Source of the DNA: Octopus vulgaris | Taxonomy: Eukaryota | DNA: 64,000 nt | Direction: 5' to 3' | NCBI GenBank assembly: GCA_951406725.2 | Contig: OX597820.1 | Span: 1,674,001-1,738,000, forward strand | The notes under the pieces: model-generated | Told to the model about the DNA's origin: nothing | What the model saw: only the letters and a program-made list of their open reading frames with translations | Databases searched by the model: none | Part shown: positions 6,950-61,635 of the stretch, piece after piece | Numbering within the stretch: position 1 is the first letter of the stretch | Layout: each line of letters opens with the position of its first letter | Position numbers and translations under genes: made by a program

Positions 6950-7342
6950 TTTCTTATTTCTTTACTGCCCACAAGGGGCTACACAAAGAGGGGACAAACA
7001 AGGACAGACAAAAGGATTAAGTCGAGTATATCGATTCCAGTGCGTAACTAATACTTATTTAACCGACCCCGAAAGGATGAAAGGCAAAGTCGACCTCGGT
7101 GGAATTTGAACTCAGAACGTAGCGGCAGACGAAATACCTATTTCTTTAGTACCCACAAGAGCCTAAACACAGAGAGGACAAACAAGGACAGACAAACGAA
7201 TTAAGTCGATTATATCGACCCCAGTGCGTAACTGGTACCTAATTTATCGACCCCGAAAGGATGAAAGGCAAAGTCGACCTCCTCGGAATTTGAACTCAGA
7301 ACGCAGCGGCGGACGAAATACGTTTCTGCCAGCTCGCCGCCT
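6950..7342 (-). mobile_element. SINE family D, two tandem units
   Basis: Two ~184-bp units containing the reverse complement of GAGTTCAAATTCCGCCGAGGTCGACTTTGCCTTTCATCCTTTCGGGGTCGATAAATTAAGTACC. Confidence 0.8.
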
Positions 7343-11631: not shown

Positions 11632-12740
11632 TACGAGATGGTGTCAAAACATTTCTGGACTAGTTCTGTAGCGCGCCAACTGTTGGCAGCACACGGTTGC
11701 GGTACAGTGAGATCTAGCGGTGACCTCCATGAGGCAGTATGCCGAGTAACATCGCTATGTTTACTTTGCATGTATGCACTAGTTGGCGATTTTATCATGG
11801 ACAGGAAATTGGAAAAAAAAAAAGCTAACGTGAGCTCTTGCGTTAAACCTGGGAAGTCTACAACAGAGACATTGAGCATACGTTTGCAAGTTTACAGCGA
11901 CGAGGCAATGAGTCATACGCAATGATTCGAGTGATACGGGAACTTCAAACGAGCCGCAGCTCAATCAAGCCGCAGTTCAATCGGCGAGCTGGCAGAAACG
12001 TTAGCACGCCGGGCGAAATGCGTAGCCGTATTTCGTCTGCCGTTACGTTCTGAGTTCAAATTCCGCCGAGGTCGGCTTTGCCTTTCATCCTTTCGGGGTC
12101 GATAAATTAAGTACCAGTTACGCATTGCGGTCGATCTAATCGACTTAATCCGTCTGTCTGTCCTTGTTTGTCCCTTCTATGTTTAGCCCCATGTGGGCAA
12201 TAAAGAAATAAGAGCATCCATGCTCATCGTTTTTTCGATATCCGTCGTATTGTGCATCGAGAATCCGTCCCTCAGGGCCTGACCGTCGATCGAGAGTTCT
12301 ACAGCGACGTTTTGAAGTATTTGAAGGAGGACATTTGGCGAAAGCGACCGGATCTGTGGAGCACGAAGAACTGGATTCTTTACGACAATGTACCCTGTCA
12401 CAGAGCCCGCCTCGCTCGTAAGTTTCTCGCCAAAAACAACATGGTGTCGCTTCTGCACCTGCCCTATTCGCCATATTTACCACCTGCGGACTTCCATCTC
12501 TTCTTCAAGAAGAAAATGAAGCTCAAAGGTCGCCGTTTTAACCGTTATCGAAATCAAGAGCGAATTGCAGAAAGCCCTCAACTGACTTACAGAAAACGAC
12601 TTCCAGGCCGAATTCCAAAAGTGGCAGGAACGCTGTGACCGGTGTATTTACTTCTCAAGGTGACTATTTCGAAGGATGTGATGTTAAAACTTTTTTTATT
12701 AAACATAACTAGTCCGAGAACTTTTTGATACTACCTCGTA
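11632..12740 (+). mobile_element. Decayed mariner transposon with a SINE insertion
   Basis: Imperfect 34-bp TIRs (TACGAGATGGTGTCAAAACATTTCTGGACTAGTT / AACTAGTCCGAGAACTTTTTGATACTACCTCGTA) with TA ends. ORF remnants contain WILYDNVPCH and PYSPYLPPADFHLF (mariner YSPDLAPxD motif). Frameshifted and internally deleted. Confidence 0.9.
11983..12212 (+). mobile_element. SINE family D, single near-complete copy inside the mariner
   Basis: GGCGAGCTGGCAGAAACGTTAGCACGCCGGGCGAAATGC..GAGTTCAAATTCCGCC tRNA-like head, conserved body, ends AATAAAGAAATAAG. Confidence 0.85.
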
Positions 12741-24971: not shown

Positions 24972-25192
24972 AGAAGCCATCTTATCATGGCTAACCACAT
25001 AGGGGAGGGGGTGTTACTGTAGCTTTATAGCCCCAGGAGATCTTCGTCTCCAGCTGGCTTTAGACACCATATCAGTGCCATATCAGTGCGCACTGGTATG
25101 GTGTCTAAAGCCAGCTGGAGACGACGATCTCCTGGGGCTATAAAGCTACAGTACACCCCTCCCCTATCTAGTTAGCTATGTTAAGATGGCTT

Positions 25193-26417: not shown

Positions 26418-27475
26418 TGTGGCAAGCTAGTAGAAACGTTAGTGCCCCGCGCGAAATGCTTAGCCGTATTTCGTTCGTCGCTAAGTACTGAGTTCAATTT
26501 CCGCCGAGGTCGACTTTGCCTTTCATCATTTCGGGGTCGATAAATTAAGTACCAGTTGCGCACTGGGGTCGAAGTAATCGACTTAATCCGTTTGTCTGTC
26601 CTTGTTTGTCCCCTCTATGTTTATCCCCTTGTGGCTAATAAAGAAACAGATATTTCGCCCGTCGATACGTTATGAGTTCAAATTCAGCCGGGGTCGACTT
26701 TGCCTTTCATCATTTCGGGGTCGATAAATTAAGTACCAGTGACGCACTGGGGTCGAAGTAATCGACGTAATCCGTTTGTCTGTCCTTGTTTTGCCCCTCT
26801 ATGTTTATCCCCTTGTGGCTAATAAAGAAACAGATATTTCGCCGGTCGATACGTAATGAGTTCAAATTCAGCAGAGGTCGACTTTGCCTTTCATCATTTC
26901 GGGGTCGATAAATTAAGTACCAGTTGCGCACTGGGGTCGAAGTAATCGATTTAATCCGTTTGTCTGTCCTTGTTTGTCTCCTCTATGTTAGCCCCGTGTT
27001 GGTAATAAAGAAACAGATATTTCACCGGTCGATACATTTTGAGTTCAAATTCAGCCGAGGTCAACTTTGCCTTTCATCATTTCGGGGTCGATAAATTAAG
27101 TACCAGTTGCGCACTGGGTTCGAAGTAATCGATCTAATCCGTTTGTCTGTCCTTGTTTCTCCCCACTATGTTAGCCCCTGTGTTGGTAATAAAGAAACAG
27201 ATATTTCACCGGTCGATACATCTTGAGTTCAAATTCAGCCGAGGTCAACTTTGCCTTTCATCATTTCGGGGTCGATAAATTAAGTACCAGTTGCGCACTG
27301 GGGTCGAAGTAATCGATTTAATCCGTTTGTCTGTCCTTGTTTGTCCCCTCTATGTTAGCCCCGTGTTGGTAATAATAAAGAAACATATTTCACCCGTCGA
27401 TACATTTTTTGTTCAAATTCAGCCGAGGTCAACTTAGCCTTTCTTTATTGCGGGGTCGATAAATTAAGTACCAGT
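26418..27475 (+). repeat. Tandem array of SINE family D, ~184-bp period, ~5.5 units
   Basis: The GAGTTCAA motif recurs at ~26490, 26674, 26858, 27041, 27225 and 27409. Confidence 0.95.
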
Positions 27476-30913: not shown

Positions 30914-31415
30914 TTAAATATTTGTTGTGCAAGAATTCTTATGTGAAGTCGTGTGTTGAAACAGATATTGTTATATTTCGGAATGGTCACATTGCCAGTT
31001 TAGCCAATAAAAACACACGCACTATATATTTGGTGTTATTTTGCTTCAGTGATATTTATTTTTTACATTAATCTTAATCTTATTTCGGACAAAGTTCTTT
31101 CGTCACACTCCTGTGACCGCATCAGTGGTCCTTTGTTTTCTTCTCACTTATTTGTGTCTCTCCTTACTAACCGTCTTACAAAATGGCTGACGGTTAGTAA
31201 GGAGAGACACAAATAAGTGAGAAGAAAACAAAGGACCACTGATGCGGTCACAGGAGTGTGACGAAAGAACTTTGTCCGAAATAAGATTAAGATTAATGTA
31301 AAAAATAAATATCACTGAAGCAAAATAACACCAAATATATAGTGCGTGTGTTTTTATTGGCTAAACTGGCAATATGACCATTCCGAAATATAACAATATA
31401 TATATACATTCATAC

Positions 31416-34148: not shown

Positions 34149-34194
<46 letters not shown>

Positions 34195-34197
<3 letters not shown>

Positions 34198-34232
34198 CGA
34201 GAGGTCAATACCTCGAAATTCGAGTCCGTGTG
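34195..34232 (+). ncRNA. Hammerhead ribozyme motif, copy 1 (5'-truncated by a TA tract)
   Basis: UGACGA-GAGGU(CAAU)ACCUC-GAAA-UUCGAG-UC-CGUGUG. Predicted GUC cleavage after 34226. Confidence 0.75.
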
Positions 34233-34403
34233 TATCATAAGTTGAAGACGGGAAGGATGACTTCCCTTTGCAAATACTGATAGGACACAGATAGTGTTGT
34301 CTATGGCCAGCTGGAGGAGTATGTAATATCAGCAACAGTGAACGCTGGAAAAAGTATAAGTATTTGTGAAGGAAATCTAATTCTCGGCGACAACTATGAT
34401 TGT

Positions 34404-34449
34404 CACACGCTGACGAGAGGTCAATACCTCGAAACTCGAGTCCAGTGTG
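34404..34449 (+). ncRNA. Minimal type I hammerhead ribozyme, copy 2 (complete core)
   Basis: CACACG-CUGACGA-GAGGU(CAAU)ACCUC-GAAA-CUCGAG-UC-CAGUGUG. Canonical core, G10.1:C11.1 pair, palindromic stem III (ACUCGAGU), GUC site at 34440-34442. Confidence 0.85.
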
Positions 34450-34520
34450 TCCTCCTGGGGCTAAAAACTACAGTAGCATCCACCCTTAGTGGTTAGCCAT
34501 ATTGAAATGGCAAAAATACG

Positions 34521-34567
<47 letters not shown>

Positions 34568-34599
34568 CTATATATATATGTGTGTGCATTTCTTTCTTT

Positions 34600-34992
34600 C
34601 TTTTCTTATTCTCTTACTTGTTTCAGTCGTTTGACTGCGACCATGCTGGAGCACCGCCTTTAGTCGAGCAAATCGACCCCGGGGCTTATTCTTTGTAAGC
34701 CTAGTACTTATTCTATCAGTCTCTTTTGCCGAACCGCTAAGTGACGGGGACGTAAACACACCAGCATAGGTTGTCAAGCAATGCTAGAGGGACAAACACA
34801 GGTACATAAACATATACACATATGCATTACATATATACGACAGGCTTCTTTCAGTTTCCGTCTACCAAATCCACTCAGAAGGCATTGGTTGGCCTGAGGC
34901 TATAGCAGAAGACACTTGCCCAAGGTGCCACGCAGTGGGACTGAACCCGGAACCATGTGGTTGGTAAGCAAGCTACTTACCACACAGCCACC
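34600..34992 (-). mobile_element. Full-length SINE family B (head, microsatellite linker, 3' body)
   Basis: Head at 34837-34992 joined to the CTTGACAACC..TTAGCGGTTCGGCAAAAGAGAC..GCTCCAGCATGG..GACTGAAAC body. Head repeated at 35014-35172 and body at 35580-35778. Confidence 0.85.
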
Positions 34993-36261
34993 CCTAAGTC
35001 TATATACATATATACGACAGGCTTCTTTCAGTTTCCGTCTACCAAATCCACTCACAAGGCATTGGTTGGCCTGAGGCTATAGCAGAAGACACTTGCCCAA
35101 GATGCCACGCAGTGGGACTGAACCCAGAACCATGTGGTTTGTTAGCAAGCTACTTACCACACAGCCACTCCTACGTCTATGTATATATATATGCACACAC
35201 ATACATACGGAACCTTCACAGCTGCTCTACTGCTTGTCATCGCCCTTAAGATGAAACTTTAATTTAACAGTTCAAGGGCAATAACTCTTGTAGAATAAGA
35301 TGTATTACCTCCCTTAATGTTGTAAATTAAATTCTCTCGTTTGGGTCAAATTTTTCTTTCCGTCCTTCATTGACAATAAAACGAAGTGGCAAAGGTCGCT
35401 TCTTGCGTGTGTATGTTCGAGTGTAACTCAAACCGTTGATTCGCTTCCCCTTCTCTGACGCAGATAACCGTCTCTTTCGTGGGCCACAATATAAACATCC
35501 TGACAATTTGGCGAGTGTGTCCGTCTTTCAGTGGAATTGCTCAAACGGTGATTCGAAATCGATCCGCTTACCGTTGCCGTCGTTTGACTGCGGCCATGCT
35601 GGAGCACCGCCTTTAGTCGAGCAAATCGACTCCGGGACTTATTCTTTGTAAGCCTAGTACTTATTCTATCAGTCTCTTTTGCCGAACCGCTAAGTGACGG
35701 GGACGTAAACACACCAGCATAGGTTGTCAAGCAATGCTAGAGGGACAAACACAGACACACAAACATACACATATGCATTCAGTCAGTCAGGCGGCCATCA
35801 GGCAGGCATTGGAGAGAGAGAGAGAAAGACAGAGAGAGTGGGAGTGAGAGACAAAACGAGAGAGGGAGAATGAGTAAGAGAGAGAGTGGGAGAAAGAGAG
35901 AAGGGGAGAGAGAGAAAGAGGAGAAAGAAAGAGATAGAGTGGGAGTGAGAGACAAAGAGAGATGGAGAATGAGTAAGAGAGAGAGTGGGAGAAATAGAGA
36001 AGGGAGAGAGAGGGAGGCAGATAGGGACAGAGAGAGAAAGAGGAGAAAGAGAGAGAGACAGAGAGAGAAAGAGTGATAGAGTGGGAGTGAGAGAGAGAGA
36101 GAGAGAAACAGGCAGGAAGAGAGAGACGGGTGACACAACGGTGCCAGAGACACACAGACAGACAGAGATATATACAGTGAGAGAGAGAAAATAGAGTGAC
36201 AGAGACAGGTAGGAGAGAGAGAGAGTCTTTTTTCATCGTATGAGAATAGCAAGTCAGAGGC

Positions 36262-41670: not shown

Positions 41671-41914
41671 GAGAGAATAATGAATGTATTTACCAATAGA
41701 GGAAGAGTATGAGTTAATAAAGGAAGCAAAAATGGGCGGAGTCACGTATACGATGTAGTGGGAGGAGTCAACGTTGAATCGGTAAGAATAATAACTCTTA
41801 TTAGATCCCTTTTACTTTAAATTCTATTGTTTTCTTTTATGCGAAATAAAATCTGTTTTTCTGCGCAGTTTGTGAAGATTTCCAAATATGATTTCATGCA
41901 AATAATAGATCGAA

Positions 41915-42396
41915 GTGTTAGACATACAGCATCTCGAAAGAGTCCAGAAGCTGGCTAGCCGCATGGTTCATGGTCTCAAAAATTTGTCCTACGAAGAAAG
42001 GCTGAGGACGCTCGACCTTTATTCTCTTGAAAAACGCCGCCGCCGTGGTGATCTCATTCTCGCCCACAACATCATAAGCGGAAAGTGTAACCTCTCGAAA
42101 GAGCTGTTCTTCACTCCTGCTCCAGAGCGTCGGCTGCGGGGTCATTCCGAAAAGCTCTACCTGCGACGATTTCATCTCAATCGAAGGAGAGGAGCTTTCT
42201 CCGTCCGGGTTGCGGATCCGTGGAACAAGCTGCCAGACGAGATGGTGAAGATGCCGACGACCGATTTGTTCAAAGCCTCCCTGGACCTCAAGTGGCCTGA
42301 ACTCTTTACATGAACACCACCCTGTACTTAACTCCATGTCCCCCTACATGGCCTTGCTATTTGCTTTTGAGCCAAATTAACTAACTAACTAACTAA
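41915..42396 (+). mobile_element. 5'-truncated CR1-group LINE, young
   Basis: Uninterrupted frame LERVQKLASRMVHGLKNLSYEERLRTLDLYSLEKRRRRGDLI..RGHSEKL..FSVRVADPWNKLP..FKASLD, short 3' UTR and (TAAC)n tail at 42378-42396. Confidence 0.92.
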
Positions 42397-49422: not shown

Positions 49423-50752
49423 CTAGCATTAAAGACCCGTCGTTGCCGAGTCATAGTGCTAGTGCATGTATATATGTGTATATATATGTGTACATATTAC
49501 ATGTACATCTATATATATATACATCTACAGATAAAATACAAAATACAAAGTTATATCTTGATATCGCTAGTGATAACAATACTCAAAATATATAAAAGCC
49601 TGGAATTGTAAGCCCGTCTCTTGTAATTTCGATCAATATTATCTTTTCCTCCCTCTTGTATAGAAGTGTGGCTACAATCTAGCCTACTTCTACTTCTGGG
49701 GGATGGGGAGGCGGCATTTAAAATTTTTCCGGGACGTCCATTCTTCCCAGATATAAAGGTAAAAATATAATATTTCCACACTGCAAAGTTCGAGTCGAGT
49801 ACTCCATCGCACGCTCCGTTGATTCGAACCTACTTCTATTGTGGCGAACTTACCGCCTCTGATTAGATATCTTTCATAGTCGCACCAAGACACTTTTCGA
49901 AGGTGCTTTCCTCCACGTGTTCAAATCTTTTTTCTCTACATTGTATACTTTACAGACAACAAGCGACGCGTCATTCTTCGTTGCGGTGACCCTCGCGTAA
50001 GTCTCCATGACTGAGGGTCAACGCTCCTTCTATAAAAAGTAACGACACGCAGCGACAAGCATCTCGCGCGATTCGATCATGTTTCGTCTCTTTCAACAAT
50101 TTTTCACTTTTTTTCACTCTTTCACACAAAAATAACGTCTGACTCTGACAGCATAATATCAGGTACTCAGTAGAAGCATCTTTCGAGAAAACAGACATTA
50201 CATACAGCCAAACTTCATATAGATACTTAATGCTAGCTAATTAGCAAATAATCTAATGTAAAAGCCACGCACACCTCCATCTGGAATATTCCATTTCTGC
50301 ACTTAAATTTTATTTTTTATTTATTCCCATTCATGTGAAACCACTGATTCAAGTTCAAGTCATTGATGCAAATTTATACCAATTGCTATTTTTATTTTTT
50401 TTATTTTACGATTATATTATACTTTAGTTTGATTTTAATTATTGCTTACTACATATAATTCAATTGTTATTATTATTTTATTGCTAAAATGAAAGCATCT
50501 GACATAAAATAGAGAAATGCTTTTGTTTCACTTTTAACATGTAATACTGAAATAGTGGAGAAGATATGATATTGCTTTGGGCTCGCTCTAGGTAAGAAGT
50601 TGAACATTCTTTTTTTGCCCATGAAACTACATGGATCCTAAGTAAGGCATGTGTAAAATTTGAATGAAATTGGTTCGGTAGTTCTCAAGTTTTAGGGAAA
50701 CGCACAGACAGACAGACACACAGACACACATTCTCAGTTTTATATATATAGA
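49423..50752 (-). mobile_element. Non-autonomous Helitron
   Basis: Minus strand starts TCTATATATATAAAACTGAGAATGTG..(CTGT)n and ends with the hairpin GACTCGGCAACGACGGGTC then GCTAG. Confidence 0.8.
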
Positions 50753-50796
50753 TATATATGTATATATATATACATATATATATATATGTGTGTGTC

Positions 50797-50858
<62 letters not shown>

Positions 50859-50869
50859 TAGTTGTATAT

Positions 50870-51230
50870 TCTACGGATTACCTAAAATACACAAAAATCT
50901 ACATATTTGTAAAGCTATTCATTAATGTTCCTTCCCCCACTGACCTCAAACTGAGACCCATCATTGCTGGACCTGCTTGTCAAGCCCACCGTTTGAGCAA
51001 CTTCCTCGACATCTTACTCATACCGTTTCTAAAATATATAAAAAGCCCCATCAAGGATGACTTAGACATGCTGAACCACCTCCCGAAGAGAATAAAGGAA
51101 GGAACCCTGTTAGTATCATTTGATGTGGTGAATTTGTACACCAATATCCCACACCATTATGTTGTAGAAACGATCAAGTTCTGGCTAGAAAAATCCTCAG
51201 AAGAGATCCCATGGCGCATCAACCTCATCA
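50870..51230 (+). mobile_element. Penelope-like reverse transcriptase fragment
   Basis: LRPIIAGPACQAHRLSNFLDILLIPFLKYIKSPIKDDLDMLNHLP..LVSFDVVNLYTNIPH, typical of the PLE RT N-terminal motifs. Confidence 0.88.
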
Positions 51231-51389
51231 CATTTACTCGAAGAAATCGACATCAGGAATTTGTAAGCCTAGTAGTAGTTATTCTATCATTCTCCTTTGC
51301 TGAACCGCCAGGTAACGGGTCGTAAACACACTAATATTGGTTGTCAAGTTATGGTGGGGTGACAAACGCAGAAACACAAACATATGCAT

Positions 51390-60371: not shown

Positions 60372-61635
60372 TATTAGGGTGACAACTAAGTTCCCTCTAT
60401 TTTGTTTTAAAATTTAAAAGGTTTTATAAAAAAAAACAGCTAATTAATGAATAATGTATTCACCCTTGTTGTTTACAACTTCTTTCCAACGTTCAACAAG
60501 ATTTGTAATACCTCGTTCGTAGAAATCACCCGATTTCGACTCGAAAAATTGATCCAACCAAGCTCTCAATTCTGCATCAGTATTGAACGAAACTCCGCAT
60601 ATATCATTTGAAAGAGATCGAAAGAGGTAGAAATCCGTTGGTGCCAAATCAGGAGAGTACGGCGGGTGTGGCAGCACTTCCCACCCATGCGCTTGAATGG
60701 CTTCCTTGGTCATGCGTTGTCGTGCAGCAGAACTCCATGCTGACGATTAGGTCTTTTCTGTTGAATAGCTGTGTTGAGCCGTTCCATCTCTTGAACATAG
60801 AGTTCCGTGTTAACCGTTTGGTTCCGTTCAAGCAATTCGTAATGGATAATTCCTTCCCAGCCCCACCATACGCACAACATCGCTTTACGCAGATGAAGAT
60901 CTTTTCACGCGCGGTGTCGCTTGTTTACCGGGGTTAAGCCATTCCTTACGCTGCTTCATATTGATGTACAGGCACCATTTTCCGACTCTAGTAACGATTC
61001 GGCTAAGAAATCGTTGCCTGTGTCCATGAGTTGAGCGGTGACGAGCAAACAAGCCAGCAGAAATTGTGGCTCGTTAATTTCTGTTGTCACTAAAGCATGC
61101 TGAACCCATGCTCCATACTTCTGAACCCATCCCATCGAGTGAAGATGCTTCTCTATAGCAGTGTGAGAGCATTCCATTTTCTCTGACTGTTCCCCTGTCA
61201 TTTGACGTGAATTTTCGTGCAAAAGTTGGTTTAATCGCTCTTCATCGAACTCAACTGGACGGCCAGAACAAGGTGCATCTTTGAGGTCAAAATTTCCATT
61301 TGTGAACATGGCATACCAATCACAAGCGGTTCTTTCAGTTATGACACCCTCTCCATACACTGTACAAATGTCGCGAGCAGCTTTTGCAGCCTTAGAACCT
61401 TGATTAAAAGCAAAAAAGAAGGTGTCGAAAATGCTCGTTTTTCTTAACTTGACATTCAGTTTTAATGATCTGAAAATAAACAAAAATTAACTAAAATTAA
61501 CTACAAAGAAAACAAAATAGATTCCAAAATCATTCAAAATAGAATTCTCAAAAGCAAAAATAGATTCCAAAATTTAAAAACGCAATTAATTTCAAAATAT
61601 ATGAAAACCGCGCGAACTTAGTTGCCAACCCAATA
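60372..61635 (-). mobile_element. Full-length decayed mariner transposon, intronic
   Basis: TA-flanked TIRs (TATTAGGGTGACAACTAAGTTC / GAACTTAGTTGCCAACCCAATA), ~1.26 kb. Transposase pieces with GRPVEFD, WVQHAL and PHPPYSPDLAPTDFYLF, broken by frameshifts. Confidence 0.95.

Follow-up and report, generated by a model that had tools for sequence, protein, structure and literature searches.

Insertion pattern of a 353-nt hammerhead repeat family, a probable Penelope-assisted non-LTR retrozyme, traced from a deleted copy in Octopus vulgaris

The metazoan non-LTR retrozymes described by Cervera and de la Pena 2020 (PMC7229834) are non-coding tandem units of 150-450 nt with a GC content below 50%, a self-paired monomer and a single canonical type I hammerhead per unit, helix III of which consists of 2 bp and a tetraloop; examples given there include units of ~350-390 nt in Mytilus and Rtz_353 of the axolotl. 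The hammerhead form was defined, and Penelope-like elements (PLEs) were proposed as helpers, in PMC4209133 and PMC7761336. The octopus family reported here shares all of these features of the unit, and thereby appears to represent a new family of a recognised class. Retrozyme sequences are lineage-specific and the likeness to those of PMC7229834 is one of features, not of compared sequence; moreover, expression, cleavage and circles were demonstrated for the latter, whereas for the octopus family it is the insertion ends (two fixed internal 3' ends, inverted arms and (TA)n targets) that have been mapped. Poseidon of Anolis (PMC11167929) and the Neptune and Naiad elements (PMC8557442) resemble the octopus family in their AT-rich or (TA)n target, 5' truncation, partial tandems and inverted 5' copy, as well as in two apparent internal starts of reverse transcription downstream of the hammerhead cut, the stretch between which is termed the 'tail' of Penelope elements in PMC11167929. 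The octopus unit differs from these elements in encoding neither a reverse transcriptase (RT) nor an endonuclease, and its tail measures 43-49 nt as compared to the 30-40 nt given for PLEs in the two sources. Vertebrate retrozymes presented as derivatives of Penelope pseudo-LTRs (pLTRs; 10.64898/2026.07.22.740005) are similar in their co-occurrence with Neptune-type elements and in forming monomers to multimers in short arrays; in that account 24 of 57 Xenopus retrozyme families match Repbase elements, nearly all of them PLE termini, whereas no such match was found for the octopus unit in three Neptune-like families, and eight of nine Xenopus retrozyme dimers did not cleave in vitro. A literature search with most subscription journals and Repbase outside its scope found no paper on a cephalopod retrozyme or on mapped retrozyme priming sites, though the supplement of PMC7229834 may list the family; a term search of the main text of the 2026 octopus repeat annotation (PMC13282606) found no mention of ribozymes.

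The window, which is the whole stretch of 64,000 nt that was analysed, contains two type I hammerhead motifs exactly where the preliminary description had placed them, with cleavage predicted after 34226 and after 34442, at a spacing of 216 nt. The two copies form a 33-nt direct repeat of 97% identity at that spacing, and a 24-nt core pattern was matched twice in the window as compared to 0 times in 100 shuffles. Rfam Hammerhead_1, suggested earlier as a check, recognised both copies under its gathering score of 34 bits, copy 2 with 28.5 bits (E 0.001, 34405-34448) and copy 1 with 26.2 bits (E 0.006, 34188-34235). The features of the locus are given below, with unit positions counted from the hammerhead cut site and with reference to a second copy of the same insertion on contig C31.

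33978..34194, + strand: (TA)n tract on the 5' side of the insertion target; the ends of the family lie in TA tracts
34195..34226, + strand: hammerhead copy 1, 5'-truncated at unit position 322 (a truncation common to the C31 copy), with A at position 3 (34194), U4 at 34195, stem II at 34201-34214 and C17 at 34226; predicted cut after 34226
34227..34324, + strand: unit positions 1-97, including the stem I 3' strand and its distal extension
34324..34325, + strand: deletion junction 1, with 138 nt missing (unit 98-235, which includes both family priming sites)
34325..34442, + strand: unit positions 236-353, ending in hammerhead copy 2
34404..34442, + strand: hammerhead copy 2, with its stem I 5' strand at 34404-34409, C3 at 34410, C17 at 34442 and an intact core; predicted cut after 34442
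34443..34444, + strand: deletion junction 2, with 90 nt missing, which leaves an A bulged when copy 2 forms a stem I of its own
34444..34524, + strand: unit positions 91-171, up to end A, a fixed 3' end of the family and putative RT start
34525..34579, + strand: (TA)n tract flanking the target on its 3' side, occupied in the C31 copy by a truncated Penelope-like element

Copy 1 is crippled, as had been recognised from the sequence, in that it begins at U4 directly after the TA tract and lacks both C3, replaced by A, and a stem I 5' strand of its own; its C15.2 is also changed to U. The proposal of a loopless palindromic stem III was correct in that eight pairs can form between the copies, one of them U-G (pair probability 0.26-0.37 in the predicted ensemble), but the monomer stem III comprises 2 bp with a palindromic UCGA loop and is not the minimal form; 2 bp with a UCGA loop is the form called 'canonical' for metazoan type I hammerheads in PMC4209133. 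Pairing of the copy 2 stem I 5' strand with the 3' strand of copy 1 was likewise reproduced, with a predicted ensemble probability of 0.77-0.83 as compared to 0.0 for the bulged stem I of copy 2 itself, and an intact hammerhead fold was modelled at the window locus only for the hybrid of core 2 with site 1. The window copy could at most cut at 34226, using the core of copy 2. This cross-pairing is nevertheless no design feature, as every hammerhead in the intact family copies pairs perfectly with its own stem I; tandem identity together with the second deletion accounts for both the cross-pairing and the bulge. Active copies are taken in 10.64898/2026.07.22.740005 to contain at least two consecutive complete hammerheads, which the window locus lacks owing to the absence of C3 and the stem I strand in copy 1 and to the broken stem I in copy 2, while other loci of the family do contain two in succession.

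In unit coordinates the window copy runs 322-353, 1-97, 236-353 and 91-171. The insertion on C31 is truncated at the same 5' position and has flanks that, in unique DNA, are ~99% identical to those of the window, but it is intact with a 354-nt spacing, and the window copy differs from it by 3 substitutions and by gaps of 138 and 90 nt. The first gap is responsible for the 216-nt spacing and removes both priming sites, and the second for the bulged stem I of copy 2. When the genome was searched with the locus, much as had been recommended for the 216-nt unit, the matches were spaced 353 nt apart, and both deletion junctions were confined to the window locus, so that the 216-nt unit can no longer be regarded as the element. 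The broader suggestion of a relic of a small hammerhead retroelement family has held, since the window copy is a deleted copy of a 353-nt retrozyme-like repeat; it is doubly deleted and likely dead. The corresponding stretch of C31 (C31:4644000-4660000) is collinear with window 14663-39900, again at ~99% in unique DNA, lacks ~10 kb and contains a Penelope insertion, and is a haplotig or recent duplication of the window region.

Two readings of the locus itself compete with this history. A 216-nt ribozyme-flanked element, with cross-pairing stems built to release a 216-nt circle, is barely credible: the 216-nt piece as a circle does rebuild stem I, as had been foreseen, and folds better than shuffles (z -3.0), but the fold is inherited from the 353-nt rod, stem I of site 2 is broken, a circle of 216 nt would lack both family priming sites, and each of the two junctions, with one mismatch allowed, was found once in the 2.8 Gb genome. 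It is also quite unlikely that both deletions are assembly errors and that the real locus equals the intact C31 copy, a possibility that would be compatible with the explanation preferred here for the family. The collinearity and ~99% identity of the unique flanks mean that C31 may be the other haplotype, the locus sits between long TA tracts, and none of the contigs listed, which derive from four sequencing runs (the RNA status of one being a guess) and show the family form, spans the window stretch. Such a gap among the contigs listed proves nothing, however, and both junctions are clean, internal deletions occur in other family copies too (L003), and window and C31 also differ elsewhere by large indels and by a Penelope insertion.

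The monomer of the family is 353 nt long, as established from at least 249 matches, from the best 40 of 2547 candidates, that are split at one point and lie 353 nt apart. The 45-nt hammerhead with a perfect stem I of its own has 407 exact copies in the genome (control 0), and the pattern of end A plus TA has 161 exact matches. The monomer has a GC content of 41.6%, is non-coding (the longest ATG frame spans 41 aa) and contains a hammerhead with the conserved core, a stem I of 6 bp with a distal helix, a stem II of 5 bp and a stem III of 2 bp with UCGA, and tandem arms extend up to 6 turns. The predicted fold of the monomer is more stable than that of shuffled sequences, both linear (z -5.7; 0 of 100 shuffles as good) and circular (z -6.2; 0 of 60). 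Young copies differ by ~0.5% substitutions outside subfamily positions, and an older subfamily, ~80% identical and represented by 177 exact matches to one 24-mer, retains the 353-nt spacing (two arrays), both end positions and the helices. In an alignment of 20 copies (3 young and 17 old) the 45 named pairs are formed in 90.7% of cells, as compared to 33-45% when the pairing is slid, and double changes between the subfamilies occur in stem II and one hairpin. Support from covariation was modest, with 5 of the 45 pairs changed on both sides, a number reached by 181 of 500 shuffles and resting largely on the split between young and old copies. RNAalifold did not recover the hammerhead fold from the same 20-copy alignment, one of two old full units folds differently, and in most of the old subfamily a C-A mismatch stands in place of the first pair of stem II (14 of 19 unpaired). 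Among the 73 candidates scored when the genome was searched with RF00163 were six other hammerheads and none from the 353-nt family. The look-up in sequencing runs returned contigs only, with no RNA entry listed, and 20 of its 24 rows (12 studies) hold at least half of the query words.

Insertions were mapped at 80 loci, 58 taken in list order from a search with the exact hammerhead, a choice that biases the counts of junctions and cores, and 22 from a locus-similarity search. Single-arm copies end at unit positions 171-174 (end A) in 31 of 36 cases, and 30 of 36 inverted two-arm copies pair such an end with one at 214-222 (end B), thereby defining two fixed 3' ends in mid-monomer that are separated by the tail of 43-49 nt. 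Ends A or B adjoin TA in 102 of 114 cases, and the 5' ends are scattered over the whole unit; two insertions outside TA tracts show target duplications of 8 and ~11 nt. Inversion junctions overlap by 1-6 nt in 28 of 57 instances. As to a fold-back origin of the inverted arms, the two sides of the junction are no more than 21 nt apart in 10 of 57 pairs, where ~7 are expected. Site A falls in the loop of a predicted hairpin. The family shows Penelope-like marks of insertion, namely the (TA)n target, a 5' truncation at random positions, arms in inverted orientation and two 3' ends that are fixed, and they match those of the elements described in PMC8557442. These ends suggest copying by rolling-circle reverse transcription with a borrowed Penelope-type enzyme.

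For the template, 86 arms were taken from the initial 87 of the 161 matches to end A plus TA, with the 3' end as the sole criterion of choice, and 67 of them run through the hammerhead cut. That reverse transcription stops at this cut site was not supported, with 9 stops nearby as compared to 5.9 expected and no pile-up, in a test made without L141, which is cut by the locus edge, and L194. Unit junctions were exact in 193 of the 203 listed, the others comprising 9 substitutions and 1 insertion, a proportion partly biased by selection. At 123 loci, alleles found in more than three loci extended to every unit of the insertion in 69 cases, were limited to one unit in 12 and occurred in some of the units in 0, while private variants filled all of at least three units 8 times, as compared to 3 partial cases and 88 singletons; 4 of the 8 extend over both inverted arms, and in the C31 copy a one-base insertion is present in both units. 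The window copy, L035 and L194 (duplicates) and segments below 93% or 88% identity, depending on the count, had been left out beforehand. Six cases of variants in only some units occur among rare or private variants, several of them near inversion junctions, and these partial patterns indicate that inserted copies also undergo conversion. With the priming sites in mid-monomer, no copy made from a cut linear monomer would exceed 171 nt. Read-through of the cut site, together with rare variants that recur in every unit, points to reverse transcription around a monomer circle, and we regard such a circle as the somewhat better than even reading of the template.

The candidate helpers in the same genome comprise two abundant young families with RT and GIY-YIG domains, of 775 aa and 781 aa, which are 47% identical and share the Cx4CxxC linker, associated with Neptune elements in PMC8557442, and a third RT plus GIY-YIG family that is older; all three Neptune-like families end in TA. 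The 781-aa family has two ends ~35-40 nt apart, and the third comes nearest to the 43-49 nt of the retrozyme, with two ends separated by 43-50 nt in 8 of 20 copies. Both young families are very abundant and near-identical, the first with a 4271-bp tandem unit and the 775-aa frame (L113, C3:5852000-5861999) and the second with a unit of ~4.8 kb and the 781-aa frame (L263, C5:1038500-1047500), and each has a further frame upstream, of ~450-480 codons, for which no Pfam match exceeded the cut-off. No sequence match of the unit was found to any of the three families, and no hammerhead was detected in them, for the 775-aa and 781-aa families with either our own descriptor or Rfam. The unit contains no RT or GIY-YIG reading frame, and no coding continuation is shared among 152 family loci; 7 of these have a Penelope protein match nearby, none as a shared 5' continuation. 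The helper is therefore one that we infer but do not name. Locus L073 was considered as a pLTR and rejected, as it represents an insertion into the 3' UTR of the third family, only 1 of 20 copies of which has the unit. A Penelope-like RT fragment at window 50696-51325 is 54% identical to the 781-aa family over 153 aligned residues.

A linear template, whether a multimeric transcript left uncut or a series of linear monomers between which the enzyme jumps, would leave the family and its Penelope-like helper unchanged and attribute the uniformity of units to ancestry and gene conversion. The Anolis Penelope enzyme inserts unprocessed RNA in vitro, where hammerhead cleavage is not needed (PMC11167929), some variants are common only to segments beside inversion junctions or to part of an array, and one unit junction contains a 14-nt insertion exactly at the cut site (L171, ~515), a possible scar of a template jump or ligation. 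Under this account, however, source mutations private to one unit should recur in one daughter unit, whereas shared alleles were present in every unit in 69 cases and in some of the units in 0, and private variants extend through entire insertions, both arms included; jumping between monomers should moreover mix haplotypes and scar the junctions, which are exact in 193 of 203. We consequently hold a linear template to be unlikely. We consider it very unlikely that the unit is the pseudo-LTR of an undiscovered autonomous Penelope element bearing the hammerhead, with the short copies as its truncated ends. In favour of such an origin, the insertion marks are without exception those of Penelope elements, pLTRs are matched by Xenopus retrozymes (10.64898/2026.07.22.740005) and other hammerhead families are present in the genome; against it, 5' ends are spread over the whole unit and arms reach 6 turns, the 7 of 152 loci near a Penelope protein have no continuation in common and the sole in-line case is the 3' UTR insertion, and neither 30 GIY-YIG loci nor the 775-aa and 781-aa families gave a match.

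Several further repeats were observed. An inverted pair of fragments between TA tracts at window 24976-25187 is a distant relative (72-80% identity) of the 50-160 module of the unit, and this module also occurs in other repeat families (L012, L061, L104, L114, L116 and L124). Other hammerhead-like motifs, some with a very long stem II and an inverted arrangement, are present at L123-L128, L236, L237, L240, L250 and L286; those at L124, L125 and L128 form one family, and all are likely further Penelope-related repeats. The window also contains tandem arrays of 184-nt and 177-nt units at 26489-27475, 6955-7321 and 34828-35191, which we take to be SINE-like, and a near-perfect inverted repeat at 31131-31233 with ~40 bp per arm and Rfam miRNA matches below cut-off. 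By eye, 12204-12638, 60956-61486 and 41909-42313 resemble mariner transposase fragments and a LINE RT end, with no Pfam match for the last of these.

Taken together, the window locus is probably a doubly deleted copy of a non-coding 353-nt tandem hammerhead repeat, a non-LTR retrozyme, that likely spreads by means of a borrowed Penelope-like RT and endonuclease, and the family likely makes self-cleaving RNA circles. Tandem copies would be transcribed and cut once per unit by the type I hammerhead, which by analogy to its relatives may act as a monomer or as a dimer through its palindromic stem III, and a host ligase would close the 353-nt monomer into a circle with the predicted self-paired fold. 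A Neptune-like enzyme may then nick (TA)n and prime cDNA at unit positions ~171 and ~214-220, where the fixed ends lie, and would make up to six turns of the presumed circle, passing through the cut site, until it falls off at random, while two oppositely primed cDNAs could join by short microhomology into inverted arms. The window copy would have been primed at site A, extended for ~560 nt and later shortened by 138 and 90 nt. In its strongest form, which we advance tentatively, this reading sees a hammerhead-made 353-nt circle primed at two fixed sites by a Neptune-type enzyme whose own element has neither a hammerhead nor a sequence match, and thereby a genomic record of rolling-circle reverse transcription.

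The value of this locus lies in the insertion record of its family and not in the broken window copy. The retrozyme life cycle of circle, borrowed RT, tandem cDNA and Penelope helper is a hypothesis in the papers cited, and the young octopus copies place the priming sites with a precision of a few bases, together with variant patterns that favour a monomer template and three candidate helper families in the same genome, two of them with intact, near-identical reading frames. If the reading above is true, the retrozyme would be a structure-mimicking parasite and not an offshoot of a pLTR, with unit size and both priming sites kept across ~20% divergence. Combined with the published in vitro Penelope assay, the enzyme that moves the retrozyme and its use of a circle become directly testable.
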